From Candidatus Bathyarchaeota archaeon (GTDB lineage Archaea > Thermoproteota > Bathyarchaeia > Bathyarchaeales > Bathycorpusculaceae), in assembly GCA_963828195.1 (NCBI GenBank), contig CAWHDT010000005.1, positions 640,001-704,000 of the forward strand: a stretch of 64,000 nucleotides of DNA, written 5' to 3'. The notes beneath the pieces were generated by a model, which was not told where the DNA came from, ran no database searches, and saw nothing but the letters and a program-made list of their open reading frames with translations. The translations under genes and the position numbers were made by a program. Positions 8,250-33,953 of this stretch are shown here, in pieces (the first letter of the stretch is position 1; every line of letters begins with the position of its first letter).

Positions 8250-8954
8250 TTGAGTGGGGAAGAAAAAGCAGTATCTAAAACAGAAAATAAGTATCCTTGG
8301 AGCAATTATACTTTAAAATGGGGCAGAGGAGAACCCGTCTCGACAACGCAGTACGTGCTCTACGCTGTGCAGATAGCAGCTGTCATAATTCTGTCATACC
8401 TTAGCGTCGTATTACTGGGTCCACTAAGCTACTCTGGCATTTCACTTTTCTACTTCGTTTACCCCTTCTTCCTTGTCTTCACCATGTGGTGGGGAATTTG
8501 GGGAATCGTCGGAGCATACGTTGGATGCGTCATAGGCGCTGGCTTAATGGTGGGTTTAGGACCCGTTGCATCCGCAGCTTACGCAATCAGCGATTTAATT
8601 CCGCCATTGCTTGTCTTCATAATTTACCGTGGCTTTCTCGCAAACAGAGGCATCGACCCGCTTTGGAGGGACTTAACGGAGAAAGAAGTTGCAGGCGTCA
8701 AAACAAAAAGAGTAACCGCTTGGATTCTGTTCATCGCGATAAATGGGCTGATCCTCAACGCAATCAGTGCAGAGATGGGCGTCGGAATAGAGAACGCTCT
8801 TGGGCTGATTCCGTCAGGTGCATACTGGGGATGGTGGGCAGGATGGTTCGCAGGAGACTTAGTAGCCATGATAATAATTACGCCAGTGCTGGTCAAAGGA
8901 CTCACAAACCTTGTCGAACGTCAAGGACTCATAAACGGCGGATGGTTCACTTAG
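8250..8954 (+). CDS. Probable ECF transporter substrate-specific membrane component
   Basis: About 6 TM; first gene of an operon with EcfT and a double ATPase. Confidence 0.6.
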   Translation: MSGEEKAVSKTENKYPWSNYTLKWGRGEPVSTTQYVLYAVQIAAVIILSYLSVVLLGPLSYSGISLFYFVYPFFLVFTMWWGIWGIVGAYVGCVIGAGLMVGLGPVASAAYAISDLIPPLLVFIIYRGFLANRGIDPLWRDLTEKEVAGVKTKRVTAWILFIAINGLILNAISAEMGVGIENALGLIPSGAYWGWWAGWFAGDLVAMIIITPVLVKGLTNLVERQGLINGGWFT

Positions 8955-12754: not shown

Positions 12755-13234
12755 TTGTTACAGTCTCATGAAAGTACATTAACGTATGTTGGTGGAGAGA
12801 CGTTGGACGAAGTATTAGATATGTTGGATAAAACTGCTAAGCGGATACAGAAGGTTGTTGACGAGACAAAAGAGGCAACTTGGAAGCAGTCAGCGCTTTA
12901 TGAGCAAATTATGCTGGCGCCGGACGCTTCAGATGAACAGAAAATTAAAGCCTTCATCAAGAAAGCACGCTATTTAGACCAGCTTGAAACGTTAAATTCG
13001 CAGCTAAGCCTGCTTTACATGCTTCAGATATTCGCGTTTAAAGTTAAAGTGCTTGAGGTAACAGTCGGAAACATCAACCAGCAGCTTACAAAATCGGGAA
13101 TTCTCCTGAAAACAGACGAAATAGAAAACATAAAGACCAACATTGACTCCCTCAAAATCCTAATTGAAGCCCAATACGAATCGATGAAGGAAATCAGAGA
13201 AACAAAAATCAAAGCGTTAGACTACATCCACTAA
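12755..13234 (+). CDS. Hypothetical coiled-coil protein
   Basis: Helical, heptad-rich ORF; true start may be TTG at ~12802. Confidence 0.55.
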   Translation: MLQSHESTLTYVGGETLDEVLDMLDKTAKRIQKVVDETKEATWKQSALYEQIMLAPDASDEQKIKAFIKKARYLDQLETLNSQLSLLYMLQIFAFKVKVLEVTVGNINQQLTKSGILLKTDEIENIKTNIDSLKILIEAQYESMKEIRETKIKALDYIH

Positions 13235-15149: not shown

Positions 15150-16814
15150 ATGAAACACGTTATGAAAAACTTGAAGCATAACGGGATATTTGTTCCAATT
15201 TACGATTACAAAGGCTTCAGCGTCAAAATCGACGGCCAAACCGTGAAGCTGACGCCGAAAAGCGAGCAAATGGCGGTCGCATGGATAAGAAAAAGCCTAT
15301 CCACCGTTTCTCCGCCAGACAACGTTTTCAAAAAGAACTTCATGCGGGAATTCCTCGGGCAACTCAAAGAGGAGAACCCGTCGGCAAATTTCTTGGATTC
15401 CTTTTGCTCAAAGTACTTAGCCAGCATTGACAATCCGCTTGCAACCCAAAATAACGGATCACAGCCGATGCCTCAAGGAATCGACTTCACCCAGATCTGC
15501 AGCTCCATTGAAAGCGAAAAAGCAAAGAAAGAAGCCCTGACTAAAGAACTTAAAAAGCAGCAGGCTGAAGAACGCAAAGTCAAGCGTTTGGCGTTTAAAG
15601 AGAAATTTGGTTATGCGGAAGTTGATGGGCAGAAACTGGAGATTGCCAACTGGACTTCGGAGCCGTCATGCCTTTTCGCTGGACGCGGCGATCATCCGCA
15701 ACGGGGAAAATGGAAGGACGGACCAAGCGAGGAAGACATTGTTTTGAATTTGCCGCCTGATGCCACCGTTCCCGCTGGGCATTGGAAAGGCGTGGTTTGG
15801 GAACCCGACAAGATGTACGTTGCTAAGTGGGAAGACAAGCTCACAGGCAAAATCAAGTACGTCTGGTTCAGCGACACAGCATTTCTCAAGCAGAACAGAG
15901 AAAAAGAAAAGTTCCAGAAAGCCGAAAACCTGGGCAAACAAATCAAAACCGTTGAGCAGCACATTCAGAGAAATCTGGATTCAAAGGATGAAGAGAGACG
16001 TAAAGTCGCCACTGTTGCATGGCTTATTTTTGCCGTTAACATGAGGGTAGGCGACGAAAAGGATCCTGACGAAGCAGACACCGTGGGCGCAATTACTCTT
16101 AGGGCGGAACACGTGAAAATCAATGGAAACCAACTGAACTTCCATTTTCTAGGCAAAGACAGTGTGGAATGGGACAAAACCCTTCCAGCGCCGCCAGAGG
16201 TTATTCGGAATATTCAAAATTACATGCAGACAAGCAAACAATACCTCTTCGAAGGCGTCAACTCAAAAAAGGTTGCTCGTTTTCTCTCTGAGAAAGTCCC
16301 AAAACTCTCCGCCAAAGTGTTCCGCACTTGGAAATGCACCACTACCCTTGAAACAGCTCTTAAAAATGAAACCGAGAGGGAAAAAGTAGCGAAGGATAGT
16401 CCTGATTACAAGAAAGCCTACGTCGCAAAGATGGCTAATTATGAAGTCGCGGTCGTGGCGAACCACAAGAAGAAGGTGCCGCCGACTTTTGACCAGCGCC
16501 TCGAGAAAAAAGAAGACAGCCTCAAATCTCTTCAACAGTTGCTTGAAACGAAGAAGGCTGAGGGCAAAAAAACGGAGTCGCTTGAAAACCGAATAGAGCG
16601 GGCTAAGCTTGACTTGGAATTGACAAAGCTAACCAAAGAATACAACTTGGGCACGTCGCTGAAATCCTACATTGACCCGACTGCATACGTGAAGTGGGCG
16701 AAAAAAGTAAAGTTTGACATCGAAAAATTCTACCCCAAAACCCTGCGCAACAAATTCAGCTGGGCACTGCAAAGCAGCAAAGCATCGCAAGCCGCCGAGT
16801 GCATAACCGCATGA
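15150..16814 (+). CDS. DNA topoisomerase IB (eukaryote-like archaeal type)
   Basis: LKHNG, GRGDHPQRG, MRVGDEKD..EADTVG, FLGKDS, AKVFRTW, NH and catalytic GTSLKSYIDP. Confidence 0.95.
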   Translation: MKHVMKNLKHNGIFVPIYDYKGFSVKIDGQTVKLTPKSEQMAVAWIRKSLSTVSPPDNVFKKNFMREFLGQLKEENPSANFLDSFCSKYLASIDNPLATQNNGSQPMPQGIDFTQICSSIESEKAKKEALTKELKKQQAEERKVKRLAFKEKFGYAEVDGQKLEIANWTSEPSCLFAGRGDHPQRGKWKDGPSEEDIVLNLPPDATVPAGHWKGVVWEPDKMYVAKWEDKLTGKIKYVWFSDTAFLKQNREKEKFQKAENLGKQIKTVEQHIQRNLDSKDEERRKVATVAWLIFAVNMRVGDEKDPDEADTVGAITLRAEHVKINGNQLNFHFLGKDSVEWDKTLPAPPEVIRNIQNYMQTSKQYLFEGVNSKKVARFLSEKVPKLSAKVFRTWKCTTTLETALKNETEREKVAKDSPDYKKAYVAKMANYEVAVVANHKKKVPPTFDQRLEKKEDSLKSLQQLLETKKAEGKKTESLENRIERAKLDLELTKLTKEYNLGTSLKSYIDPTAYVKWAKKVKFDIEKFYPKTLRNKFSWALQSSKASQAAECITA

Positions 16815-22091: not shown

Positions 22092-23102
22092 TTAGGCTTT
22101 TGGCTTAACTGGCGGTGCCGCTGGCTCAGACATCGGTGCCCCAATGGCTTCTCTGAGATAAGCCTTGAATGGACCCAGCTTCCCACCATAGTTACCAGAC
22201 GAAATCTTAACTATGCCGGGCACGCCGAGGGCTGCGGTTACGCCTTCTTTCATGCCTTTTTTGACTGCGTCCAAGGTTAAGCCGTTCATAACAATTTCGT
22301 AAACGCATTTGACGCCTTCTGGCACAACAGAGTCAGACACAAGTGTGCGCAGCGTTGGGCAGTACGGGTGGTTAGTTGAGGCTTTAAGTTTGTATTTAAG
22401 CGAGCCAGCCTTGCTTCCTGAACGGCAGACTCCTCCTGGAAACTGCATAATCACATCAGGAGCATTTGCGCGGATTGCATCTGCCGCCGCTTCAGCCGAT
22501 TTCAATCCTGATGGCTGATCTTCAGCAAAAATCATAAAGTTGCCGCCTGCAACCGCTTCCATAGCGCCAAAACCGTTTTCAACGATAAATTCGCCTTCCA
22601 TCACGGGAAGCTTCCAGCATTTTCTTCCTCCAACCATGGCTTTTTTCTGGTACCCATCGCCGAAGTATCGTAAGCTGTTGCCAACGTCCAATGTTCGTTT
22701 GCCGACTAACCCGTTGAAGGCTGCGGTTGTTGGACAAGTCAAAGTGCATTGACCAATACGCTGCATAAGTTGGTGCTTGAGTTCAAATCGGTCACGATTA
22801 TAAATTTGAATTAGCACACCTGGCCGCTTGTCAGGGGTCTGGTCTGCTGGAACAGTCCGCTCGATTGCTGCTTCCGCAGTTGCCTCAATTACGCTCGTGG
22901 CAAAACCCGTGGTTAAACTCGCGGCGATTAATGCCCACTTCTCGTTTTGAGCGGTAATTAAAACTCTTCCGACCCAAAGAGGAAACATTTCTGCAAAGGT
23001 ATCTTGAACCTTCACAACGTTTCCCATGGGCGATTTTACAAGGAACATTTTTTCTTTATCGTCATAGCTTTGGATTTCAACCGCGTTAGTGTTTGATGAC
23101 AT
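22092..23102 (-). CDS. ftr: Formylmethanofuran:H4MPT formyltransferase
   Basis: DTFAEMF, GFATSVI, TPDKRPG, RIGQCTLTCPT, AGGNF, SGSK, GNYGGKLG; start MSSNT at 23102. Confidence 0.92.
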   Translation of the reverse strand: MSSNTNAVEIQSYDDKEKMFLVKSPMGNVVKVQDTFAEMFPLWVGRVLITAQNEKWALIAASLTTGFATSVIEATAEAAIERTVPADQTPDKRPGVLIQIYNRDRFELKHQLMQRIGQCTLTCPTTAAFNGLVGKRTLDVGNSLRYFGDGYQKKAMVGGRKCWKLPVMEGEFIVENGFGAMEAVAGGNFMIFAEDQPSGLKSAEAAADAIRANAPDVIMQFPGGVCRSGSKAGSLKYKLKASTNHPYCPTLRTLVSDSVVPEGVKCVYEIVMNGLTLDAVKKGMKEGVTAALGVPGIVKISSGNYGGKLGPFKAYLREAIGAPMSEPAAPPVKPKA

Positions 23103-23332
23103 TGAGAGACCTTGCAGTTCAGTTGGGAATTGTATAGTTTCAATACCTTTATTATTGATATTTAAACTATTAATCCCTATCAACTTTATCTGCGTCCCTC
23201 TTAGTCGGATTATTCATTAATTAACTTTACTGAATGAATCTTAACCCTTGAATTTACTCGGTAATAACCCTAACCGCTTTAACCCACTTTTTTCCATAAG
23301 CATGGTTGACGATAGCACATACCCTTAAATTA

Positions 23333-23833
23333 TTATGAAATTTTGAAACCCCAAACATAATTAATAATATATGGATTGAAAGAAACTTGTTGCTCGGCAG
23401 TAATAATTTGAGTACTGTTACTTCCATAATCTTGAGTTATGTATATAGAGTTTGTAGAATTAAGAATATAGTAAGTGTCCATTAAATCCCAACCATCAGC
23501 AACATATACACGAACAGGAAAGGTTTGATTGTTTGTTATTATCAAACTTAGAACATTTGGTATTATCTGAATTAAAGCACTTCCATTTACAGGTGTAAGA
23601 GCATAATAAGGTGTACCATTATAGCAATTACAATATAAGAGTGTTAAGTTCTGAACAGTGAAAGGTAAGGGATAAAGTGTTACTCCATAAACTTCCTTTG
23701 CAGTTTGTGGAGTAATTGGGGTGTTTGCTGTGATTCTGATTATTGAATTATGATTTAAAGTAACTGAAATACCTGCTATTGTACTTGCAACTATAAGAAT
23801 TATCAAGATTGATATAACTATTTTTTTATTCAA
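23333..23833 (-). CDS. Membrane-anchored extracellular protein (element cargo)
   Basis: MNKKIV signal anchor; N/T/Y-rich with several N-x-S/T sequons; very AT-rich. Confidence 0.55.
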   Translation of the reverse strand: MNKKIVISILIILIVASTIAGISVTLNHNSIIRITANTPITPQTAKEVYGVTLYPLPFTVQNLTLLYCNCYNGTPYYALTPVNGSALIQIIPNVLSLIITNNQTFPVRVYVADGWDLMDTYYILNSTNSIYITQDYGSNSTQIITAEQQVSFNPYIINYVWGFKIS

Positions 23834-23950
23834 TTCTATCTCTAATATTCCAATTTACGCTTTTCAGATTTAAAACTTATCATCAATGAAAAATAGCAGT
23901 GCTACCGAGAACAAAAATACTCTCTAATAGCGGTTAGGATAACGCTAAAT

Positions 23951-24205
23951 ATGCAGCCTAACAAACTATGTTTTGGTGAGAATATGAACAAGATAGTATT
24001 AACAGAAAAAAGTAAGGGTTTTGTTATAGATAAACAAGAATGCCTTAATTGTAAAGCTGAATTCTTTTTTAAAATTAAAGACAATGCACTAATCGAGGCG
24101 AAGGGGTATGCAAAAAAGAAATCTGACAAAATTATTAGCTGTAAAATTTGTAATTCGGAATATAGTTTTGAAGTTAAAGGGTTTTCTGGTCGTGTTGGTC
24201 TCTAA
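23951..24205 (+). CDS. Small Zn-finger protein (CxxC...CxxC)
   Basis: CLNC and CKIC pairs; convergent with terL; start may be MNKIVL. Confidence 0.5.
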   Translation: MQPNKLCFGENMNKIVLTEKSKGFVIDKQECLNCKAEFFFKIKDNALIEAKGYAKKKSDKIISCKICNSEYSFEVKGFSGRVGL

Positions 24206-25677
24206 CTCCTTGAAAATAATCCTTTTTTATTTTGGTTAAGACGATTAGTGATAACAAAATTTCTATTGATAATAGGATGAATAGTGTTAGACTGCTTACC
24301 GAAATTACTCCAAGTTTCACCAGTGTTCATGTCATGAATAACTATTCTTCCACCTGTCGCTGGTTTAATAGGAAATTGCTGTTCATCCCAGAAGTTTAGC
24401 AACAAAAGAGAATCGACTAAATCGTCGTAATGCGGATTGCCTTGTTTTTTATAAGACTTCATTTCTTGAATTAAATCGTCATATTCTGATGATATCTCTA
24501 ACCCTTGACTCTCTATTACATGGCTAAGTTGTCCTTGCATGACTTCTTTGTAATAGCGTGAATTGACAGAGAAAACTTTGCTCTTACCGTAAGCTTCCGA
24601 TATGAGGTCAGACCACATAATGGGCAGACTATCAACCTTAACAAGCTGTACTTTATAGGACTTTAGAAACTCTGCTATTTCTGCAACTGCACCGTTAATC
24701 TGTTCAAATCCCCATGTCTTACGGAAGAGAACTTTAAGCTTATACTTACCGTTTTTCTCCCCTATTGTTAAGGCTAATTTGTCTCGGTCAGTGTGTCCAG
24801 TTCCACCACCGTCTATTCCAGCCCATCTAATACCTCCTTCGCTTAGTACCTGTTCTCTAATAGCTTTGTTAATTTGCTCTGTGTCCCATAGTAACTTAAT
24901 GCTGCTCTCGGATATTTCCCCGAGTACATCCCTTTTCCACTCATCTTCCGTCATTATCGTTTTCTTATTGCTTAGTTCTTCTTGACTATGCCAATCACAG
25001 TCTATTTCGCTCCACTTGAAAAGAGTAAAATTGTATTTCTTTGGGTTTTTGAGTATCTCATTAAACTTAGAATATCGAGAACTCGGAGTGCCTAAGACTA
25101 CCAGCTTAATCTTTTTACCGCTAAGATTTCCGTAAGCTGTAGATAGTGTTTCAGAAGGCATTAATTCAGCCTCATCTAAAAAGAGAATGCTTGCACTTGC
25201 TCCCCGTATGCCTTTCTCGGAAGAGGATAATAGCTGTACCTTGCTACCGTTCTTTAAAGAGTAGCCGTCTTTAGGAATAATGTTAGCTACCCCTTCCCAA
25301 CTTACATACTGTCTAAGCTCTGGGTTACTGCTAAAGATGTCTGTTATGTGTTGATAAACGTAGTTCTCTTTAGCAGAGACTAAGCACACTTGAATCTTGT
25401 TTTTGAGTGTTAAGTAAATGGCTGCTACTGCACAGCAAAGGCTCTTTCCAGTCTGTCTTCCAGCACTGATAAGAACATTCGTTAGCTCTGGGTTTTCTAA
25501 TCCCTGTAAGACCTCTACTTGTTTAGCGGTAGGAATTAGCTCTGTAATCTTAGTAAAAAATTCTGTTATGCTGAGACTGAGAAGGCTATTAACTTCTTTA
25601 GTTATTGCTAAGTTACCTTCTTTAGCCTTCAATCGGTCTCGATATTTTTTCTGCTTCTCAGCGTTAGTCATAGGCAT
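24202..25677 (-). CDS. Terminase large subunit-like ATPase-nuclease
   Basis: PTAKQ, AGRQTGKS (Walker A), IRG, LFLDEA (Walker B), LGTP, WAGIDGG and HYDDLVDS RNase H-like nuclease motifs. Confidence 0.85.
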   Translation of the reverse strand: MPMTNAEKQKKYRDRLKAKEGNLAITKEVNSLLSLSITEFFTKITELIPTAKQVEVLQGLENPELTNVLISAGRQTGKSLCCAVAAIYLTLKNKIQVCLVSAKENYVYQHITDIFSSNPELRQYVSWEGVANIIPKDGYSLKNGSKVQLLSSSEKGIRGASASILFLDEAELMPSETLSTAYGNLSGKKIKLVVLGTPSSRYSKFNEILKNPKKYNFTLFKWSEIDCDWHSQEELSNKKTIMTEDEWKRDVLGEISESSIKLLWDTEQINKAIREQVLSEGGIRWAGIDGGGTGHTDRDKLALTIGEKNGKYKLKVLFRKTWGFEQINGAVAEIAEFLKSYKVQLVKVDSLPIMWSDLISEAYGKSKVFSVNSRYYKEVMQGQLSHVIESQGLEISSEYDDLIQEMKSYKKQGNPHYDDLVDSLLLLNFWDEQQFPIKPATGGRIVIHDMNTGETWSNFGKQSNTIHPIINRNFVITNRLNQNKKGLFSRS

Positions 25678-25693
25678 TAAAGAATAACCTTCT

Positions 25694-25837
25694 TTATTTC
25701 TTGGATTCTGGGTTTGGTTGTGGTTGATTTAAAAGATTCCCATCTGCATAGAGTTTCTTGTAGAACTCAAGGTTCTTTTTACTTAATCCAATTTGGGTTA
25801 GAATCTCTTCCTTGACTTCTTCGCTGCTTTTGGTCAT
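25694..25837 (-). CDS. 47-aa hypothetical protein (not in ORF track)
   Basis: MTKSSEEVKEEILTQIGLSKKNLEFYKKLY...; ATGA-coupled to the upstream gene and directly before terL. Confidence 0.5.
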   Translation of the reverse strand: MTKSSEEVKEEILTQIGLSKKNLEFYKKLYADGNLLNQPQPNPESKK

Positions 25838-26508
25838 TTAAAAATTCCCTTTCTCTTAGTCTTAGCTTCCTTAGATGCATCCGCCCGTAACTGTTCTTCT
25901 GCATCATGTTTCGCTTTCTGTTCTGCCTCGTATATGCCTTTAGGAATCCATTGCCCTGTGTCTTCTCGTCTAACAAAACCAAAACCAGTCATTCCAAAAT
26001 CGTCTGGATATTTCTTCTTAGCTTCTGGTTGCTTTGGTTCTTGTAATGTAGCTGCATTTTTCACTGTTAGAAACTTAGCTATAATTGGGTCGTTAATTGG
26101 TGCAATCTTAAGCATGTAAACGTAATCGACTGTCTCGCCTTGAGTATCTGAGTTCATAGTTCCGACTTTTACTTTAGCTGTTGAGTAATCCTCTGACCAT
26201 TCTATATCCGAGCTTTTGTATATGCTGCCTTCGTAGAAATCAAAACGACCGTTCCCATTGTATCTTAGACTATACCGACCGTTTCCATCACTAAGACTAA
26301 TTGCAACCCCGACTGGTAATGTTGCTACTAAAAGCTCGCTGCGTGGCATTGATTGATACTCTGCTATCAGGTCGTTTAGTCGTTTTATAGCTGCCTTCTG
26401 TGCCTCTACCGAGGGATAGATAACACTCGGGTTTCCTACACTATTCTGTAGAGTTTCTATTTCTGTTAGAAGCTCTCGTTTCTTAATTTTTAATTCTTCT
26501 TGATTCAT
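25834..26508 (-). CDS. Hypothetical protein upstream of terL
   Basis: 224-aa ORF with purine-rich AAGGGG upstream; helical N-terminus, beta-rich middle, charged C-terminus. Confidence 0.6.
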   Translation of the reverse strand: MNQEELKIKKRELLTEIETLQNSVGNPSVIYPSVEAQKAAIKRLNDLIAEYQSMPRSELLVATLPVGVAISLSDGNGRYSLRYNGNGRFDFYEGSIYKSSDIEWSEDYSTAKVKVGTMNSDTQGETVDYVYMLKIAPINDPIIAKFLTVKNAATLQEPKQPEAKKKYPDDFGMTGFGFVRREDTGQWIPKGIYEAEQKAKHDAEEQLRADASKEAKTKRKGIFK

Positions 26509-26514
26509 TTTGAT

Positions 26515-26715
26515 TTATACCCCTTTTTTATTCTCACTATCATGAAATGAGAAATTGGAATTGTAAACACTCGCTCCCTGAGTAACTACTGGAAACTTTG
26601 CTAATCTCCTTAGTTCTCTGGGAGACTTTGTTTGGTTTGGACAATGCTTTCTTATAGAATAACCTCGCCTTTCCGTATCTTGTCTATACTGAAAACCTCT
26701 TAATTCCCTGCTCAA
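26515..26715 (-). CDS. Small basic hypothetical protein
   Basis: Overlap-coupled within the element operon. Confidence 0.4.
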   Translation of the reverse strand: MSRELRGFQYRQDTERRGYSIRKHCPNQTKSPRELRRLAKFPVVTQGASVYNSNFSFHDSENKKGV

Positions 26716-26927
26716 TGTGACCTACACTCCCCAGAATCACAAAGTTTCTGATAATAGTATTTTATATCCAATTTACTATTAGCGATAGGAGAAGGTAGAC
26801 CGAACTTAGTTAAGAGAGCTATATCATTCTCTAACTTTGATATGGTCTTCATTCTTTCCCGTCTAACTGGACACGTAGAAGAACAACTTTTCTCTGGAAA
26901 GGCTCTTTTCTTAATTGAGTGGGTCAT
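26712..26927 (-). CDS. Small Cys-containing hypothetical protein
   Basis: CSSTC...CDSGEC; ATGA coupling at both ends. Confidence 0.45.
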   Translation of the reverse strand: MTHSIKKRAFPEKSCSSTCPVRRERMKTISKLENDIALLTKFGLPSPIANSKLDIKYYYQKLCDSGECRSH

Positions 26928-27166
26928 TGTTCCCTACTCCAATCTCTCATTTCTGGATATACTTCGTTTCGTAACCAGACTAATCTATTAGAATTTCTTA
27001 TTTCGGTGTGCCATTGATAGGCTTCATTAATAGACTCTGCTTCCCCGTCAAATTCTAAATAACAGCCCATTGAACAGAAAAGGTCAGTCTCTAACTCTGG
27101 CTCGTAAAGTTTACCACATTGAACACATTTCCGTTTAATTACGGCTAATGAGCCTAAGTTTGCCAT
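26924..27166 (-). CDS. Treble-clef/TRASH-like Zn-finger protein
   Basis: CVQCGK...FCSMGC; start ATG overlaps the upstream stop (TAATG). Confidence 0.55.
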   Translation of the reverse strand: MANLGSLAVIKRKCVQCGKLYEPELETDLFCSMGCYLEFDGEAESINEAYQWHTEIRNSNRLVWLRNEVYPEMRDWSREQ

Positions 27167-27330
27167 TAACAAAACTTCCCCTGAGTGCTCCGTTTTCTTG
27201 GGATAGGATGGTCTCTTTTACATCTATTACCGCAACATACTTTTTTAGGGTCATAAGTTTGGAAGATTGTATCGCACCGAATACACTTCTTTGTTAAAAT
27301 AATCGATGAAATAGGAGCTAAGATTTCCAT
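27166..27330 (-). CDS. 54-aa treble-clef-like Zn-finger protein (not in ORF track)
   Basis: MEILAP...KKCIRCDTIF...VCCGNRC; same Cys pattern as the downstream gene. Confidence 0.55.
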   Translation of the reverse strand: MEILAPISSIILTKKCIRCDTIFQTYDPKKVCCGNRCKRDHPIPRKRSTQGKFC

Positions 27331-27332
27331 CA

Positions 27333-27515
27333 CTAAACACTTACTGCCTTGATTGCTGCCTTCTGTACTTTTGAAAGGTTAAGAAGCTTACAATTATCAG
27401 AAAGCATATTGTTTACTAAGTTATCTGGTAAAGTAACATTCATTTGAACTGGATGCTTGTTTCCACACTCGGGGCATACAGCATCAATAACAAAACTATG
27501 GGTCTTAGTTCCCAT
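27333..27515 (-). CDS. Small CPxCG protein
   Basis: MGTKTHSFVIDAVCPECGNKH...; coupled start (TAATG) at 27515. Confidence 0.5.
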   Translation of the reverse strand: MGTKTHSFVIDAVCPECGNKHPVQMNVTLPDNLVNNMLSDNCKLLNLSKVQKAAIKAVSV

Positions 27516-27640
27516 TAGACCACATCCCCTAACATTATTCTGCCACAATCGGCGCAGAGAAATCTTTGTTTCTTTCCCTGTCTGGTAATCTGCTTACCAG
27601 CTTTAACGATATGGCTACTGCCACATTGACATTTTTTCAT
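27515..27640 (-). CDS. IS1 InsA-like zinc ribbon, 41 aa (copy 1; not in ORF track)
   Basis: MKKCQCGSSHIVKAGKQITRQGKKQRFLCADCGRIMLGDVV; AT-rich TATA-like sequence upstream. Confidence 0.75.
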   Translation of the reverse strand: MKKCQCGSSHIVKAGKQITRQGKKQRFLCADCGRIMLGDVV

Positions 27641-27755
27641 TGTAGGCTACCCCTAATATATTGATTGATAGAAAGATATATTAAAGCTTCATGGTACTTA
27701 ATTATACCCTAAACTTAATAGTTCTGTGGTCGTAGAAAAATTAGCTATTCAGTTA

Positions 27756-27816
27756 TCCCTTTTTGCATTTTTCATACCCTTAAAATATCTACATCTTGCT
27801 ATGCAAAAAAGGGAAC
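27756..27816. repeat. Palindromic unit E1 (TCCCTTTTTGCAT...ATGCAAAAAAGGGAAC)
   Basis: Imperfect inverted arms around a TACCCTTAAAATATCTACATC core; similar to 30915-30986 and 31387-31464. Confidence 0.75.
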
Positions 27817-27826
27817 ATTCTTGTAA

Positions 27827-29287
27827 CTATGTCGATTCTTTTCTCTTTCTCGTTTGCTGTTCTCTTATCATTTTAGCTGTTTTTTCTTTTCCGAAAAAAA
27901 GGTACGAAGTGCGAGCATTATCATAATTTAAGCTCGGTTCTGAACCTTCTTTTAAAAGCATAAGCGTATCGCAGCTTGAGCACCGTTTAGGTCTACCGAT
28001 GTCTGTAGTCTGATATTCAAATTTCTCGTAGCAGTTGGAACAGTGACCATAACCAAAACCAAAATCAAGCCTCTTAACTAAACAATCAATAGTTATTTCT
28101 GGTACGAAACCAACATTTGCTTTATTACTGGTTTTGGCTTTTCTTTTAGATTCTTCACTTAGAATAAGAGTATTTAAGTCTTCCATAACCCTATTTAGAC
28201 CGATAGTGTAAAGGTCGGGGTTCTTTGTCTTCATATCTTCCATTTTCTTTCTAAACCGTTCCACTGCATCTTTACCGTAATAATATTCTATCGCCTTTCT
28301 GGTAATTTTTTCTGCTATTGCTAAAGTGTCTCGGGATATGAATAACGCATCTGCTTCGCATTTCACTGCACCGTATTTTTCTATAAAATCAGCATGCTTG
28401 AGTTTCTTGGTATACTTTAGTTCTGGATTATCTCTAAATTTGTTTACTTCCTTCATTAATTCAATGTCTTCGACTAATGGAAGATTGTATCTTTTTATAT
28501 CCTCTATGTTTAGACCAACTCGTTTAATTACTAATTTCTCTGGGTCATATCTCGTACTTGGTTTTATTTCCTCTAAGTATTCTTTGAAATTATCTGACAT
28601 CTGCCGACCAACAATATCGAAATCGTAAAAAAGTAGTAGTACGGGAGTGAGTTTATTCTCTTCGGCTTTCTGTGCCAACTTTGCTATGTGGTCTAATATT
28701 AACAGTGGCGCTCTTCCTTTAGTGCTTACGATTGGTATATGGTACTCTTGGCAAATAGGCGCTAATACTTCTTTAAGGTCTCCTTTTTCAACAGACATCA
28801 TAAGATAATACTTTTCGTCTTTCCAGAATCCAGTATTAGATTCAGCTATGTTATTCATTTTATCGGTAATGAGTTCTTGAATTTCCATAAGTCCTTCTGT
28901 TGGGTCTGTTTCTTCGATTATGCCTTTAAAATGTCGAGTCTCGTCTTGGTCTTCTTTAACAAAGTCCATAGGTAACAGGTTTGCTTTTCTACAAACTGCA
29001 ATAGCAGCACCACATTTTTTAAATTCTGCTTCTGTTTTAGCTATTTTTCCCTTAGATTCTAATAAATAACCCCAACCTCTAACATTACGCTTGATACCTG
29101 TTTCTGCATCAAAAGCCTTAAGGTCGTTAGCAAAGCGCCAATACCTTTCCCTATTATCGGGGTCACTAATGCTTCCTGTTGGAATATACCCTTTCAGTTC
29201 TTTAGGTTTTGTATAGACAGCATTGTATTCTTTCCCGAACATCTTAGTCGTAGCACTTTCAAACACTTTTTTGATAGCGTCATTCAT
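27827..29287 (-). CDS. Type IIB topoisomerase A-subunit-like (Mini-A/Topo VIII-A-like) Toprim protein
   Basis: VRGWGY winged-helix Tyr motif, SVEKGD, STKG, YDFDIVG (DxD), RVGLN, EADAL; C-terminal CxxC..CxxC. Confidence 0.72.
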   Translation of the reverse strand: MNDAIKKVFESATTKMFGKEYNAVYTKPKELKGYIPTGSISDPDNRERYWRFANDLKAFDAETGIKRNVRGWGYLLESKGKIAKTEAEFKKCGAAIAVCRKANLLPMDFVKEDQDETRHFKGIIEETDPTEGLMEIQELITDKMNNIAESNTGFWKDEKYYLMMSVEKGDLKEVLAPICQEYHIPIVSTKGRAPLLILDHIAKLAQKAEENKLTPVLLLFYDFDIVGRQMSDNFKEYLEEIKPSTRYDPEKLVIKRVGLNIEDIKRYNLPLVEDIELMKEVNKFRDNPELKYTKKLKHADFIEKYGAVKCEADALFISRDTLAIAEKITRKAIEYYYGKDAVERFRKKMEDMKTKNPDLYTIGLNRVMEDLNTLILSEESKRKAKTSNKANVGFVPEITIDCLVKRLDFGFGYGHCSNCYEKFEYQTTDIGRPKRCSSCDTLMLLKEGSEPSLNYDNARTSYLFFGKEKTAKMIREQQTRKRKEST

Positions 29288-30621
29288 TGGAGAACACCTT
29301 TAGCGTAATCATCGTACTTTACTGCTGGACACATGAAATGATAGATAACAGTCATTGGCGCAGTAGAATACTTCTTTGTAGAAAGACGGGTTTCTATTGG
29401 ACAGCATTTTAAGAAGACTTGTTGGGGTGCTGACATGTGATTAACACATAGATATAGCTGTAAGCCTTTGTTGTCTTCTGGTCTAAGAATCTTAGCGATT
29501 TCAAGGGCAAAGGGATATTCTACGTGTGATAGGTCTTTACAATCTTTATGTTCTTCCATTGATACCCTACAATCATAAGCCACTCCAATATTGAGCGAAT
29601 ACCCGTTATCGCATAATGTCCAGCCATTCTTCTCGCATCGTTTTTCAAATGCTTCTTTACCAACGATACCCAACACTGATTTAACAGTGCGTGAGTCCTC
29701 AATGGGTTTAGTTAACACTTTCATATTTGCATAGAGTTTTTCTATTCCTTCTTTGGATACTTTTGTTAGTAAGGTGTCTGCACCGTTTTTATAAAGTGAG
29801 TCTTGTAAGAAGGGATAGGTAATTTCATGACTTTGAAAACCCCTGAACATTGATGTTATGAACCTTTTAAGGGTTAAATCTGGACATGAAGCTGCATAAT
29901 CCAAAAATAACTCTGTAAACTCTTCGAGCTTGTACCAGAGAGCACTCGTTTCTTGTATTGGGTCTTTTCCGTCTGTAATTCTGTCGTAGACCGTTTCTTT
30001 ACCCATAAACTCATAGGTAATCTTTTTTGTTGGATTAACTAAGGCTGTAGCTTCAATGCTTCTCTCTATTTCCTTAGTGTCTAAATAATTTTGAACTGGA
30101 AACTTTACGGATATTACCGTTCCCCTGTCTATCCTTTTTGAAATTTGGATACTCGGGGGATTCATTCTTACATTGTCATGTGATAACGTTATAGTAAACT
30201 TGGAAGCTCCCGATTCTATGATGATAGACGGTATAGGCAGATTCTTAAGTTCAGCCGATATGTAGGAAAACCCAAAGATGCACTTTAATGCGTTACCTAT
30301 TCGACCTCTGCTAAGGCGCATTAATCCCCTGTTGGAGCTTGCTTTGTTATCAAAATCAAATATTTGGTCTATGACCTTTGGGGTTAACTTTGTTTCCCCA
30401 TCATTGGTTACGGTTACGGTATAGAAGTCTTTATCGCTGGTAATTGATACTCTTACTTTAACGGAGCCTTTTACATCTAAACCGTTAGCTAACATTTCCC
30501 TTACAGCAAAGTTTATCGCATGGTCTAAATCTGTTCCCGTTCTCAATCGTAGCTGTTCAGGTTCTATAAAATCTAAACTTCTCGGCAGACCCTTACGGAC
30601 TTCATTTATTAAAGATGTCAT
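29284..30621 (-). CDS. Type IIB topoisomerase B-subunit-like GHKL ATPase (Topo VIII-like)
   Basis: REMLANGLD (N box), VTNDG, SRGRIGNALK, GTVISV; C-terminal PFALE and DYAKG resemble the transducer; ATGA-coupled to the A-like gene. Start reassigned to MTSLINE. Confidence 0.75.
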   Translation of the reverse strand: MTSLINEVRKGLPRSLDFIEPEQLRLRTGTDLDHAINFAVREMLANGLDVKGSVKVRVSITSDKDFYTVTVTNDGETKLTPKVIDQIFDFDNKASSNRGLMRLSRGRIGNALKCIFGFSYISAELKNLPIPSIIIESGASKFTITLSHDNVRMNPPSIQISKRIDRGTVISVKFPVQNYLDTKEIERSIEATALVNPTKKITYEFMGKETVYDRITDGKDPIQETSALWYKLEEFTELFLDYAASCPDLTLKRFITSMFRGFQSHEITYPFLQDSLYKNGADTLLTKVSKEGIEKLYANMKVLTKPIEDSRTVKSVLGIVGKEAFEKRCEKNGWTLCDNGYSLNIGVAYDCRVSMEEHKDCKDLSHVEYPFALEIAKILRPEDNKGLQLYLCVNHMSAPQQVFLKCCPIETRLSTKKYSTAPMTVIYHFMCPAVKYDDYAKGVLQ

Positions 30622-30626
30622 GCTTC

Positions 30627-30773
30627 TCACGATTTGTTTTCTTCGATTGTTGGGTTTAGCACTCTGCCACATTCTTGGCATAGATACCTCTGGATTTTAC
30701 CCTTACGTGTAGTTCTGAATCCGAGCTTCACGATATGGGTACTTCCACAGATACATTTAGCTGGTTTACTCAT
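30627..30773 (-). CDS. IS1 InsA-like zinc ribbon, 48 aa (copy 2; not in ORF track)
   Basis: MSKPAKCICGSTHIVKLGFRTTRKGKIQRYLCQECGRVLNPTIEENKS; paralog of 27515-27640. Confidence 0.75.
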   Translation of the reverse strand: MSKPAKCICGSTHIVKLGFRTTRKGKIQRYLCQECGRVLNPTIEENKS

Positions 30774-30914
30774 TCTTCGTACTCTTCTACACTATAAATA
30801 GGTATATCTATAGATATAAGGATTATGGGTAATTAAGATATAATATATGGTCAAAGTGGTTCAAAATGAAATTCCCTATTATGCTTTAGTTCATGCTGTC
30901 AGCACCTTAACCTC

Positions 30915-30986
30915 TTCCCCTTTTTTGTATTTATTATACCTCTAAAAGATGTAGACCAGCCACTACAAAAAAGGGAACTTTCCCAT
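30915..30986. repeat. Palindromic unit E2
   Basis: Perfect 12-bp IR CCCTTTTTTGTA (30918-30929) / TACAAAAAAGGG (30964-30975), followed by AACTTTCCCAT. Confidence 0.8.
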
Positions 30987-31386
30987 TAGATTGGAAACAC
31001 CTGAAACACCTTACTTCTACAGGTAAACAAGCTAATCCAATAAGACATTAATTATCTATTAGTTTTTTAATTCTAACAGACAGAGAAACTCTATATCTAA
31101 TAATTTACTAAATTAAGAGACATAGAAACACCTTACTGGATGTTTATTGTCCAGCTATCTTACTACAGGTTGAGGTCGTTATTAGTTCTTAATATCCTGA
31201 AGCCTTGATGAAGGGGAACTAACCATTTAGCCACTTTATAACCGAAGTAACCTTACTGGTTCGGATAGACTTTTTTCCAATGCGATTCACCAATAAATAA
31301 ACAGCTAACGCATTGGGAGAATTAGCTGCCTACCTACTGATTACTAACCACTTTCTCGGGGAGCATAAAAAGTTTTATGGTCTTTG

Positions 31387-31464
31387 CCCTTTCTGCATTT
31401 TCTACGCTAAAAACATCTACATCGTAAACTTGATTGCCTAAGCAAAAAAGGGGAACTTACCCAT
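31387..31464. repeat. Palindromic unit E3
   Basis: CCCTTTCTGCATTTT...TAAAAACATCTACATC...GCAAAAAAGGGGAACTTACCCAT; aligns with E1 and E2. Confidence 0.75.
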
Positions 31465-31893
31465 CTGATAATAAAGTGAGGTAGTTGTTTAATTTTATAT
31501 TTTTTATAGTGTGCAGTATTCCTTACTGCACTTGGCGTTTCAAGCATTAATGAAGCATATTTCTAAGTTCTCCGTGCTGACTCTTGATACTCCTAAATGC
31601 TAAGAGATTGAGTATTAGAATTAGATTAGATGTTTATTGATGCCTGAGTGGTGGCATGGAGAACCATAGTAAAAGACCATGCTTGGAGACTAATAGAAAG
31701 ACCGTACCCACAATAAGAGGAATGTTAGCCTTAGAAACTTGATAGTTTAACGTTAAAAACTGTACTTGTTTCTTTAATGTATTAGAGCAATAGCGGAGTG
31801 TAAACGAGCTGGCGCATAGCCCTATTGCATAGTACAATTACTAAAAGCATGGGAAAATAATGATTGTCGGTAACAGTTTAGTTACTTGAAAGG

Positions 31894-33042
31894 TTACTCT
31901 TCTTTCAGTATATCGTCTGCTTGTTTGTCTCTCTCTTCTTGGTCATGAATTATCTCTTCCAGTGTGTAATCTTTAGCTAACAATCCACGTTCTTTGAAAG
32001 CTGAGAGCAGAGAATTAAAAGCATATTTTAGAGTAGATACTTCATTCTGTAAATCATCAAGTTTCTTAACCTGTTCCTTATTGACACCAGAAGTACCTTT
32101 GAAGTCTATGTTTAAGTAATCATTGTAAACAGTAGGGTACTTTTCTTCTATCTCACTCTGTAGGGTTTGAAGATAGGTAGAGTCTGAGATGTTAATTGAC
32201 TTACCCATTAGATACTTTATTTGAAACTCGTTAAAGCCACATCTTGATAGACGAGACATTAGCCATTTCCGTATATTGTGGAATCTCAAGCTCCCTGTAG
32301 TCTTTAGACCTGACTGCATCGCTAAACGGTAAAGCATCTTTTGAACTCCATCTTGGGTTATCGGGAACAGCCTTGAATCATTGTCTTTTCTAATGGCTAA
32401 GTATTTTGTCAGCCACTCGATAGCTAAGGGATTAAGAACACAAAAACGTGCTACTCCTGTCTTCTGCCGTGTATTGGCAAAGAAGATAAACTTCTCACTG
32501 TTTTGGGTAGCATGAGCTAATCTTTTTGTTATTACTTCTTTGTCTTGTTCTAAGAACGCTGATATTTCCCAACCTTCACTAACTGCAGTTGCTAAGAGAG
32601 CTTTCTCAAAAGTATCTCCTACCTCGAAAAGTAGCTTTAAGTCACCATTAGTAAAAACATGGCTGTTGTTATCAGCCTCTAAATTGAGTAGTTGTCCTTT
32701 TCTAAAAGTGACTACCTTATCAATCGTTAAGAGATAAGAACGCATGGCTGTAATTATGCTTAAGATTCCATTGTTCTTGAATCCCTTTTTTGTTTGCTCT
32801 CCTTGAAAAGTCAAAAAGAGCTTTTTGATTTCTTTACTATCCATCTCTTTTAAATTGGCTATAGAGACATTGGTTGCTTGTAGAAACCTTACTAATCTGC
32901 TTGCATATTGATGTCTTGTACTCTTTTTGTTAAACTCACTCAGCCATGACTCTATCGAAGGGTCACTATTCAAGATTTTTAGCTGTTCATCCGTAAAGTT
33001 AGACCAATCACTGTCTAAAACTCTATCTTTAAATTCTGACAT
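31894..33042 (-). CDS. Tyrosine recombinase/integrase
   Basis: STRHQY N-domain, RQKTG (catalytic K), FHNIRK (HxxR), YLMGK and DSTYL (catalytic Y); C-terminal coiled coil. Confidence 0.9.
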   Translation of the reverse strand: MSEFKDRVLDSDWSNFTDEQLKILNSDPSIESWLSEFNKKSTRHQYASRLVRFLQATNVSIANLKEMDSKEIKKLFLTFQGEQTKKGFKNNGILSIITAMRSYLLTIDKVVTFRKGQLLNLEADNNSHVFTNGDLKLLFEVGDTFEKALLATAVSEGWEISAFLEQDKEVITKRLAHATQNSEKFIFFANTRQKTGVARFCVLNPLAIEWLTKYLAIRKDNDSRLFPITQDGVQKMLYRLAMQSGLKTTGSLRFHNIRKWLMSRLSRCGFNEFQIKYLMGKSINISDSTYLQTLQSEIEEKYPTVYNDYLNIDFKGTSGVNKEQVKKLDDLQNEVSTLKYAFNSLLSAFKERGLLAKDYTLEEIIHDQEERDKQADDILKEE

Positions 33043-33052
33043 TTCTCAGACT

Positions 33053-33123
33053 CTCAGTATTAGTATAATGGCAGACCGATTAATAAAGTTAGCGAGATTC
33101 TAATACTGATTATCTCAGTACTG
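33053..33123. promoter_or_regulatory. Inverted-repeat operator upstream of integrase
   Basis: TCAGTATTAG (33054-33063) / CTAATACTGA (33100-33109) is a perfect 10-bp IR around a TATA-like sequence; third half-site CTCAGTA at 33114. Confidence 0.6.
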
Positions 33124-33248
33124 TATAATTTAAGAGTTTTCATGAGCAACCAACGTTTTCTAAATTTCTAAGGCTATTCAAAACGCAAACGGGGGGAACA
33201 TCAAAAACCAGCTTCCGAAGGGAAATATCCTTTGAAAAGTCTAAGCCG

Positions 33249-33953
33249 CTATTTTTCTACTTTGATTATATGCGGGATTTTACCTGCAGTGCCAACCTGA
33301 CCTTTGTAGATAATTAACACCCCTTCAACCCCTTCAATCGATAACCCCCTATTGATTCCTGCTTTTATCGCGGCTTCCACATTTTCGCCTTTAACAACGT
33401 TCCCCACGGCTGTCGCAGCTGCATCAGCAAGTGAGGCGTTTTTGCAGAAAACCGTTGCAGCTTCTGCGTCACCGAAACTTAGCGCGTGGCTGAAGCGTCC
33501 AGAACTGGTGGCGACTCCGATTGGGAACTCTGTTAGCCGAAAGCCGAAGCGTTTCGACAGGGGTTCTTCTCCGGCGGCAACTGCGACATCTACAGGCATG
33601 TTGGATTGCGCTGAGATTTCTCCGCCGTCCTCAACCACAGCCACCTCACAGCCCACGTCTTCCATATCGCCCACCGCTAAGTCCGCTATGACTCCAGCGA
33701 CAGCTGCCATAGGTCCGACGCCCACTTTTTGTGCAGCTAAAGCCATCAATTTCGCCACAAGCGGCTTTTCCGGCGGAGGGATCGGTTTAAGGGTGTACAA
33801 GAATTTGGGGTTTGCTCTGACATAGATTTCGAGTTCTTGCCTGTTGCGTTTGATTGATTCTTTTGCGGTTTCAATTGCTTGTTTTTTGTCAGAAATTATT
33901 GTGCATTGGGTTTCTTTCAGGGTGAAGTTTTCTTTGAAAAGGTTTCTAGTCAA
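33249..33953 (-). CDS. UPF0280 (ApbE-superfamily) protein
   Basis: VGPMAAVAG, EDGGEI, ATSSG...SFGDA, ADAAAT. Confidence 0.88.
   Translation of the reverse strand: MTRNLFKENFTLKETQCTIISDKKQAIETAKESIKRNRQELEIYVRANPKFLYTLKPIPPPEKPLVAKLMALAAQKVGVGPMAAVAGVIADLAVGDMEDVGCEVAVVEDGGEISAQSNMPVDVAVAAGEEPLSKRFGFRLTEFPIGVATSSGRFSHALSFGDAEAATVFCKNASLADAAATAVGNVVKGENVEAAIKAGINRGLSIEGVEGVLIIYKGQVGTAGKIPHIIKVEK

Follow-up and report, generated by a model that had tools for sequence, protein, structure and literature searches.

What is the function of a palindromic DNA unit that recurs in front of both operons of a small integrated element in Bathyarchaeia? The window analyzed here, a stretch of 64,000 nucleotides (nt) from a Candidatus Bathyarchaeota archaeon (GenBank assembly GCA_963828195.1, contig CAWHDT010000005.1, positions 640,001 to 704,000), contains an integrated element at positions 23137-33121, delimited by composition, empty sites and open reading frames (ORFs), in which every long gene lies on the minus strand. 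In the order of transcription, it comprises a tyrosine recombinase (integrase) gene, 1.1 kb without a convincing ORF, a zinc-ribbon gene (Zn2), genes for the B-like and A-like subunits of a type IIB topoisomerase, a second zinc-ribbon gene (Zn1) and five small ORFs, followed by an ORF of 224 amino acids (aa), a 47-aa ORF, a terminase-like gene and a 166-aa ORF with a hydrophobic N-terminus. A first-pass annotation had described the topoisomerase module as a discrete cassette bounded by hairpin recombination sites, an inference that is not supported by any test performed here. We tentatively favor another reading, in which the palindromic unit, designated E, is an operon-boundary element that combines a U-tract terminator with a site through which the zinc ribbons control their own operons.

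Copy E1 (27757-27826, minus strand; palindrome 27757-27813) starts 6 nt past the stop codon of the A-like gene and ends 116 nt before the ATG of Zn1. Copy E2 (30919-30995, minus strand), delimited by repeat search and alignment, consists of a palindrome at 30919-30975 with the conserved 5' flank GGGAAAGTTCCC and ends 145 nt before the ATG of Zn2. The distances to the A-like stop and to the zinc-ribbon genes given by the first-pass annotation were thus right, as was its description of both operons as headed by a palindrome and a zinc ribbon (E1/Zn1 and E2/Zn2). E1 and E2 are copies of the same palindromic unit, as had also been proposed: positions 27757-27820 and 30919-30982 form a 64-nt direct repeat of 73% identity at a spacing of 3162 nt, recovered by self-BLAST inside the element (E-value 1.9e-7), by global alignment (z 7.3, a score reached by none of 300 shuffles) and by a repeat test that compares the sequences upstream and downstream of the topoisomerase gene pair (z 13.6). 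A third full copy, E3 (31387-31465, minus strand; unit 31387-31452 plus flank), aligns pairwise with E1 (z 7.3) and E2 (z 5.4), again with 0 of 300 shuffles as good. A decayed copy at about 31211-31233 (minus strand) keeps the left flank and arm (ATGGTTAGTTCCCCTT) and has neither a T-run nor a right arm.

Both E1 and E2 are built from arms CCCTTTTTTG(C/T)A and the complement around a 31-33-nt loop; across the copies the arms lie 31-45 nt apart, and one arm pair covaries, being C:G in E1 and T:A in E2. On the sense strand, the unit has an invariant core, GTTCCC and then six T. The left flank and arm, GTTCCC-T6-G, is identical in the three full copies, which differ more in their right arm and in parts of the loop. 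The opposite strand carries T5-6. GTTCCC is present at one end only, the other ends being GGGATAAC, GGGGAAGAGG and GGGCAAAGACC. When the whole 2.83-Mb assembly was searched with a regular expression, the unit with its GATGTAGA loop motif was found at three sites, namely E1, E2 and E3, and five unrelated sites also matched. T-run/A-run palindromes of the E design are likewise rare in the genome (11 hits that collapse to five other sites), which indicates that E is not the usual gene-end signal of the host.

E3, the decayed copy and E2 are arranged as a loose array with a period of approximately 240 nt within the 1.1 kb of non-coding sequence that separates the integrase gene from Zn2, and a loose alignment of the three array units extends over roughly their first 100 nt. 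Also located in this non-coding region are five copies of CAGTAAGG(T), with one mismatch allowed, and a GAAACACCT tandem. With an array before Zn2 and an outlying copy before Zn1, E does not simply bracket the topoisomerase genes, and the earlier picture of two bracketing sites gives way to three to four copies in a loose array. Two further resemblances of the E1 loop were dropped: a 16-nt match to 23318-23333, at chance level by our own estimate and with flanks unlike E, and a similarity to the right junction of the element (13/15 with a 2-nt gap), several of which are expected by chance by a similar estimate. A strict repeated-palindrome screen of 95 loci overlooked the window's own E copies and is not used as evidence.

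The zinc-ribbon genes are situated on the minus strand at the head of each operon. Zn1 (27515-27640) encodes a stand-alone ribbon of 41 aa as the first gene of the second operon, its stop codon overlapping the next ATG; Zn2 (30627-30773) encodes one of 48 aa as the first gene of the topoisomerase operon and stops 5 nt before the B-like start. They are true paralogues, with 21 of 34 residues identical (62%, E-value 6e-16), in agreement with the first-pass annotation. The four cysteines in two knuckles are conserved in both; the first knuckle is C-x-C, a derived form compared with the C-P-x-C of aligned homologues, and among these homologues stand-alone ribbons with the shared C-x-C knuckle are seen only in the window. 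Both ribbons pass the curated cutoff (28 bits) of NCBIfam NF050000, the IS1/IS1595 N-terminal zinc-binding domain (Zn1 31.6 bits, Zn2 33.3 bits), and the label InsA-like given earlier is therefore fair for the ribbon. It does not extend further, as the proteins terminate 6-12 residues past the last Cys and carry no helix-turn-helix, and Pfam Zn_ribbon_InsA scores 16.1 bits for Zn1 (cutoff 26.1) and does not match Zn2. A search of Zn2 against a set of 5.8 billion proteins, limited to lengths of 26-84 aa, returned no candidate, its sensitivity being low for so short a query. Elsewhere in the host genome, six transposase-like frames of ~378-463 aa (contigs C1, C3, C5, C6 and C8 of G000) have the same type of zinc ribbon. 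On reading their sequence, they combine a SWIM-like Cys/His motif, the zinc ribbon and a helix-turn-helix-like stretch, and two of the six are identical over the displayed part.

To place the ribbons among relatives, 94 related topoisomerase loci were collected. Thirteen were found with a profile of the A-like protein in Bathyarchaeia-type metagenome-assembled genomes (from 141 pattern matches), 80 were kept out of 109 metagenome stretches found with the same profile (among 346 pattern matches), and one further locus came from a genome of the same genus. A six-frame search with a hidden Markov model (HMM) built from Zn1 and Zn2 matched eight loci at E-values ≤ 0.0013 (L093, L057, L009, L089, L086, L121, L007 and L008) and two more weakly (L126 and L084). 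Every match in these relatives is the N-terminus of a long frame located directly after the A-like gene, and these frames are tyrosine integrases according to Pfam. By gene order, Zn1 thus occupies the conserved position of the integrase's zinc-ribbon domain in the relatives. In a second group of loci, the A-like gene is followed by a 159-aa ORF and a different type of integrase, and in L006 an 80-aa degenerate ribbon precedes this pair. The window's own integrase type was matched in 7 of the 94 loci. Apart from the zinc ribbons, neither the terminase-like gene nor the small ORFs of the window had a tblastn match (E-value ≤ 1e-3) in the 94 loci.

The age of the duplication can be read from the zinc-ribbon genes. 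Over 34 aligned codons, the proportions of nonsynonymous (pN) and synonymous (pS) differences are 0.27 and 0.77; as the synonymous sites are saturated, the two genes were duplicated long ago and have both been kept by purifying selection. Between E and the zinc-ribbon genes, the spacers (116 versus 145 nt) align no better than shuffles (z 0.8), and the E copies keep approximately 70% identity (z 5.4-7.3, 0 of 300 shuffles as good). Because E is kept while the silent sites of the Zn genes are saturated and the spacers are at chance, E is a maintained sequence element under selection and not merely a fading duplication. Within the two modules, selection has preserved nothing but E and the Zn genes. 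The duplicated palindrome-promoter-ribbon module described at first pass is therefore retained in its first and last parts, E and Zn, and not in the spacer taken for a promoter. E is also specific to this element: its exact pattern was found in 0 of 400 other genomes of the order and in no stretch of the viral contigs, and no E was seen in the 94 related loci, where the regular expression was applied only to L004 and L005 and the others were covered by tblastn and self-BLAST, which are not E-specific.

We consider it possible, and favor for now, that E is a shared terminator and operator read by the zinc ribbons, which the first-pass annotation had listed as its alternative; the selection on E and on the Zn genes is observed, and the termination and binding are proposed. 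Zn2, the B-like and the A-like gene would form one operon, and Zn1, the small Cys-rich proteins and the terminase-like gene a second, co-directional one. The U6 on the sense strand within the E hairpin would end transcripts arriving from the upstream unit, being the integrase or the topoisomerase operon, and the zinc ribbons would bind the conserved E sequence and set read-through or initiation into their own operon. As the ribbons are the first product of each operon, they could set read-through or initiation for both operons together. Promoters may lie at TATA-like boxes predicted from the sequence ~13-36 nt before each Zn ATG. The E-plus-Zn pair would have been duplicated long ago. The copy before the B-like gene is probably the derived one, because the position of Zn1 matches that of the integrase's zinc-ribbon domain in relatives, and this copy would have given the topoisomerase genes their own regulated promoter. 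The T6 present on the sense strand of E1, E2 and E3 agrees with the archaeal U-tract pattern of at least five U at the end of a unit, and U-tracts are described as the archaeal termination signal in the available portion of PMC8716108.

Several observations weigh against this proposal. As an RNA hairpin, E shows no unusual stability compared with shuffles (z -0.7 to -1.1), and sense-strand T6/T7 runs also occur inside the terminase-like and A-like genes, so that a T-run alone does not mark the operon ends. E is located at least ~90 nt upstream of the putative TATA boxes, a large distance for an archaeal operator. Neither E3 nor the decayed copy is followed by a Zn gene, and E3 lies ~430 nt past the integrase stop, an odd place for a simple terminator. 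Specific DNA binding may be doubtful for a ribbon of 41-48 aa without a helix-turn-helix. Finally, no related element carrying E was found in the collections searched, and the proposal thus receives no comparative support. An Rfam scan of 23000-33300 gave no credible family; a bacterial promoter and terminator scan stayed at shuffle level and is not applicable to archaea.

The borders of the element show where its integrase has acted. Homology between the window and four genomes of the same genus ends at 23140 and, according to the BLAST table, restarts at 33122 in three of these four; in the fourth, the continuation was read directly from the sequence. In G255 the left and right host flanks abut, forming an empty site, and the empty-site sequence in the sister genomes is GGGAATTGTATAATTTAAGAG. 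The left junction repeat is ATTGTATAGTTT (23129-23140), host sequence ending inside TGTATA at 23131-23136, and the right junction repeat, set by comparison with the empty site, is ACTGTATAATTT (33120-33131). The junctions share only a short core, A[T/C]TGTATA[G/A]TTT, which is unlike E. The empty site also exists in the environment, since a contig from metagenome run X3 passes from 23140 directly into the right flank. Empty sites and junction comparison together show an element of approximately 10 kb integrated at a TGTATA-centered core.

This core bears directly on the suggestion that the E copies are recombination sites and that the 3.16 kb between E2 and E1, with Zn2 and the topoisomerase gene pair, can be excised or captured as a cassette, which might be carried out by the resident integrase or by a recombinase guided by the zinc ribbons. 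The palindromic copies are indeed direct repeats around the topoisomerase module, the zinc ribbon is an integrase N-terminal domain in related elements, and the B/A gene pair is found in varied contexts. The integrase's own junction core, the TGTATA region, is nevertheless unlike E. The core sites of tyrosine recombinases consist of inverted binding arms around a 6-8-bp overlap region; the arms of E lie 31-45 nt apart, and the real junction has the different TGTATA core. E lacks the complementary end boxes of attC, the integrase does not resemble IntI, and the ~240-nt period of the array is too short for cassettes. No E was seen in the 94 related loci, covered by tblastn and self-BLAST and, for L004 and L005, by the regular expression, and the exact E pattern had no match in 400 other genomes. 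Direct repeats around the B/A pair occur in two unrelated loci, 66 nt at 82% identity over 3175 nt in L070 and 49 nt at 80% over 3731 nt in L058, yet these are pieces of coding sequence and not palindromes. Altogether, we regard an E-bounded cassette as quite improbable.

The public contigs come from four soil metagenome runs of three studies and cover the element in fragments. Hybrid junctions between E1 and E2, which a cassette could leave, are not listed among them, a comparison of low power as contigs drop rare forms, and a contig of run X3 bridges E1 unchanged (27668-27852). The three joints that are listed all fall at 25650-27138 in a ~93% variant of run X2, which spans the terminase-like gene to the small ORFs and carries indels and a 300-nt replacement at 26837-27138. 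One variant contig of the same run parts from the window sequence at 31492, close to E3 on the side of the integrase, a position that speaks for recombination there; this loose end may be a breakpoint or merely divergence. Among the public runs, no RNA run holding the stretch is listed.

The repeat test on sequences upstream and downstream of the gene pair covered 67 loci including the window. Besides the window, L070 stood out (z 34) and L057 gave a weak signal (z 6.6, 23-nt repeat), and the repeats of L058 were found by self-BLAST. The very high scores of L082 and L121 were indexing artefacts of truncated contigs and were rejected. The L070 and L058 repeats derive from small ORFs, pieces of which are duplicated so as to lie both ahead of the B gene and behind the A gene. 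Flanking repeats therefore amount to three cases among ~70 loci, with unrelated repeat sequences. Those of L070 and L058 could have been left behind when a module inserted through recombination at flanking homology, and module gain may proceed in this way. The stronger version, in which the B/A pair is a mobile module moving via short flanking repeats, the E copies are hairpin sites read by the stand-alone zinc ribbons and the L058/L070 repeats are its scars, appears improbable to us. If true, it would represent an integron-like or Campbell-type capture system that has yet to be described in Archaea.

Two other functions for E were considered. E might be a mere terminator or insulator, with U-tracts on both strands of the palindrome and no relation to the zinc ribbons, which would act elsewhere, e.g. 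with the topoisomerase or in modulating recombination. The position of E1 directly after the A-like stop, the T6 invariant on the sense strand together with T5-6 on the other strand, the archaeal U-tract rule as given in the available text of PMC8716108, and the absence of a Zn gene behind E3 and the decayed copy are all consistent with this. It leaves unexplained that ~65 nt including the loop motifs are kept despite saturated neutral sites, beyond what a U-tract needs; moreover, other gene ends, in the element as in the host, do not show the E design, and T6 runs also lie inside genes. We consider this explanation unlikely.

Alternatively, the array, with E1 as an outlier, could be an iteron-like replication origin or partition site of the excised circle, bound by an element or host protein, at which the topoisomerase would act. 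Origins commonly contain A/T tracts and palindromes. E3, the decayed copy and E2 do lie at ~240-nt spacing in the longest non-coding stretch of the element, along with the five CAGTAAGG(T) copies and the GAAACACCT tandem, and no replication initiator was recognized in the element by the family scans. E1, however, is isolated between the two operons at a distance of 3.1 kb from the array; the element has no Rep, primase or helicase gene whose product could act there, and no GC-skew or other origin signal is seen at this scale. An origin or partition site is accordingly rather improbable in our judgment.

The proposed boundary element of E and zinc ribbons has partial counterparts in several known systems. 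InsA binds the ends of IS1 and represses transcription and transposition. Like InsA and the IS1/IS1595 ribbons, Zn1 and Zn2 pass the domain cutoff and are small proteins at the head of a mobile-element operon. They differ in their length of only 41-48 aa, in the lack of a helix-turn-helix and in the C-x-C first knuckle; in addition, this element has no transposase, and its repeats are direct copies of a palindrome and not terminal inverted repeats.

The attC sites of integrons end in the complementary boxes RYYYAAC ... GTTRRRY. E resembles them as an imperfect palindrome of ~60-80 nt, in direct orientation around a gene module near a tyrosine recombinase gene. It lacks complementary RYYYAAC/GTTRRRY end boxes, as judged by sequence inspection and not by a covariance model. 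No IntI-type match was obtained for the integrase, whose gene runs in the same direction as the supposed cassettes, and the module consists of its own promoter region plus three genes. The earlier statement that E does not match integron attC is hence borne out, neither attC nor IntI features being found. Integrons have been reported in Archaea, according to the available part of 10.1101/2022.02.06.479319.

A further comparison is offered by phage lambda, where Int has an arm-binding N-terminal domain and Xis is a small directionality factor. In relatives of the window the zinc ribbon is the integrase N-terminus; here it stands alone, as a factor that competes for or organizes integrase sites might. 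The resident integrase itself has no Zn domain, and unlike lambda arms, the E sites are not beside the crossover: their distances to the right junction range from at least 1.6 kb (E3) to 5.3 kb (E1).

The topoisomerase genes between the two E-plus-Zn pairs belong to a family of their own. The B-like subunit (29284-30621, minus strand) has 445 aa from the ATG at 30621, a start set by the N-termini of relatives. As a possible GHKL ATPase moiety, it gives only weak matches below the cutoffs, to the NCBIfam Topo VI subunit B model with an E-value of 2e-10 (39.9 bits versus a cutoff of 274) and to Pfam HATPase_c with 2.9e-4 (21.7 bits versus a cutoff of 26.4), and has no match among PDB sequences. 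The A-like subunit (27827-29287, minus strand), assigned by PHROG and structure, has 486 aa including a C-terminal four-Cys ribbon; it matches PHROG 6247 'DNA topoisomerase' (E-value 3.1e-44) and no Pfam family. A structure model built from 20 homologues has a predicted local distance difference test (pLDDT) score of 77.5 and a predicted template modeling (pTM) score of 0.61. Its top Foldseek match is Topo VI A (1d3y, E-value 1.4e-4, probability 1.00), followed by Topo VI A chains of M. mazei, with the Spo11 core complex ranking lower and TM-scores that are low throughout (0.24-0.38). Residues E167, D222 and D224, which we take to be the acidic triad of the Toprim motifs, are invariant in the 20 sequences. 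The A-like protein is thus predicted, from this model, to have the Topo VI A subunit fold (5Y-CAP plus Toprim). Its C-terminal ribbon (window 27827-27990; C416, C419, C436 and C439) is nearly invariant in the family and gives a weak LysW-like match in a PDB sequence search.

In 81 of the 94 loci the B-like gene precedes the A-like gene, and all related A-like proteins are at most 46% identical to that of the window. Fused B/A frames of 887-1001 aa occur in L006, L011, L012, L016 and G245, and split forms in other relatives. These loci (L006-L018, L057-L136) represent a large Bathyarchaeia family of split or fused B/A genes that usually lie directly before an integrase. In the sections available, the family is unmentioned in PMC7671362 (0 occurrences of Bathyarchaeota) and in PMC8185306. 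The window shares with Topo VIII and type IIB enzymes of mobile elements, as presented in the available parts of PMC4117785, PMC7671362 and PMC8185306, the presence of B-like and A-like moieties in an integrated element, and with Topo VI the fold of its A-like subunit. It differs from Topo VIII, a fused B-A polypeptide, in that its genes are split, its relatives being both fused and split; the likeness to Topo VIII is drawn from description only. Split Topo VIII forms have been reported as well (PMC7671362, in the part available). In L133, and likewise in L134, three copies of a 42-63-nt direct repeat (8256-8441 and 12867-12929) lie immediately behind one integrase and shortly ahead of another, and resemble attachment sites of tandem or nested elements. 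Outside the element, a eukaryote-type topoisomerase IB is found among the host genes (window 15150-16814), and all three of its Pfam domains are matched.

The element carries several further genes. The integrase of 382 aa (31894-33042, minus strand), which has no Zn ribbon, starts 80 nt from the right junction. Pfam Phage_integrase matches it slightly below the cutoff (E-value 4.9e-6, 26.9 versus 27.1 bits), PHROG integrase families match, and its sole NCBIfam match is the XerA-type model NF040815 (39.2 bits versus a cutoff of 220). Downstream of Zn1, the five small ORFs (71, 55, 82, 71 and 66 aa; 26515-27548, minus strand) are mostly Cys-rich and match no family among those scanned. The 224-aa ORF, the 47-aa ORF and the terminase-like gene, all called as ORFs, occupy 24202-26508 (minus strand). 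The last of these encodes a 491-aa terminase large-subunit-like protein (24202-25677, minus strand) that matches Pfam Terminase_6N with 28.4 bits (cutoff 22) and PHROG 2 with an E-value of 3.3e-25; it was matched in 35 of 401 genomes of the class at E-values ≤ 1e-8, with a best non-self identity of 28%. The gene is complete in a 10-kb element in which the protein family scans recognized no capsid or portal gene, and the element may accordingly be satellite-like or defective.

Across the element the GC content is 36-40%, compared with ~44-47% in the flanks, the dip extending over roughly 22-34 kb. The host flanks carry a gene for formylmethanofuran-tetrahydromethanopterin formyltransferase and a conserved 234-aa gene adjoining a homocysteine-biosynthesis gene; the 234-aa gene was found in 40 of 41 genomes of the same genus. 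Two sister genomes have other insertions between the same host genes, of ~1.6 kb in G303 and ~3.7 kb in G264 (window 33176-33255 compared with L033 and L034), and the integration site may be an insertion hot spot. At the left end, the 166-aa ORF is flanked by two short intergenic motifs (window 23239-23275 and about 23856-23892). The 36-nt motif occurs once more in this genome (G000 contig C7, 11495-11531) and in 5 of 60 other genomes of the same genus, with 1-3 copies, at loci that are matched by the second motif as well. Public contigs have loose ends at the borders of these motifs, and no tRNA was found there.

Searches for relatives of the element as a whole returned little. The A-like protein alone had no match in genome contigs or viral contigs, the A profile none in viral contigs, and the terminase-like protein none in viral contigs; compared with 201 genomes of the family, the element DNA gave only short matches, in two others. 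No close relative of the element turned up in the collections searched, and for that reason the function of its parts is inferred.

For mobile elements of Bathyarchaeia, a cis-element and a minimal zinc ribbon that selection has kept together at two operon heads provide a testable pair for archaeal transcription control and termination. The same zinc ribbon serving as an integrase domain in relatives links the DNA-binding domain of a recombinase to a possible stand-alone regulator. If the cassette reading were true, E would instead point to a novel mechanism by which archaeal elements exchange gene modules.

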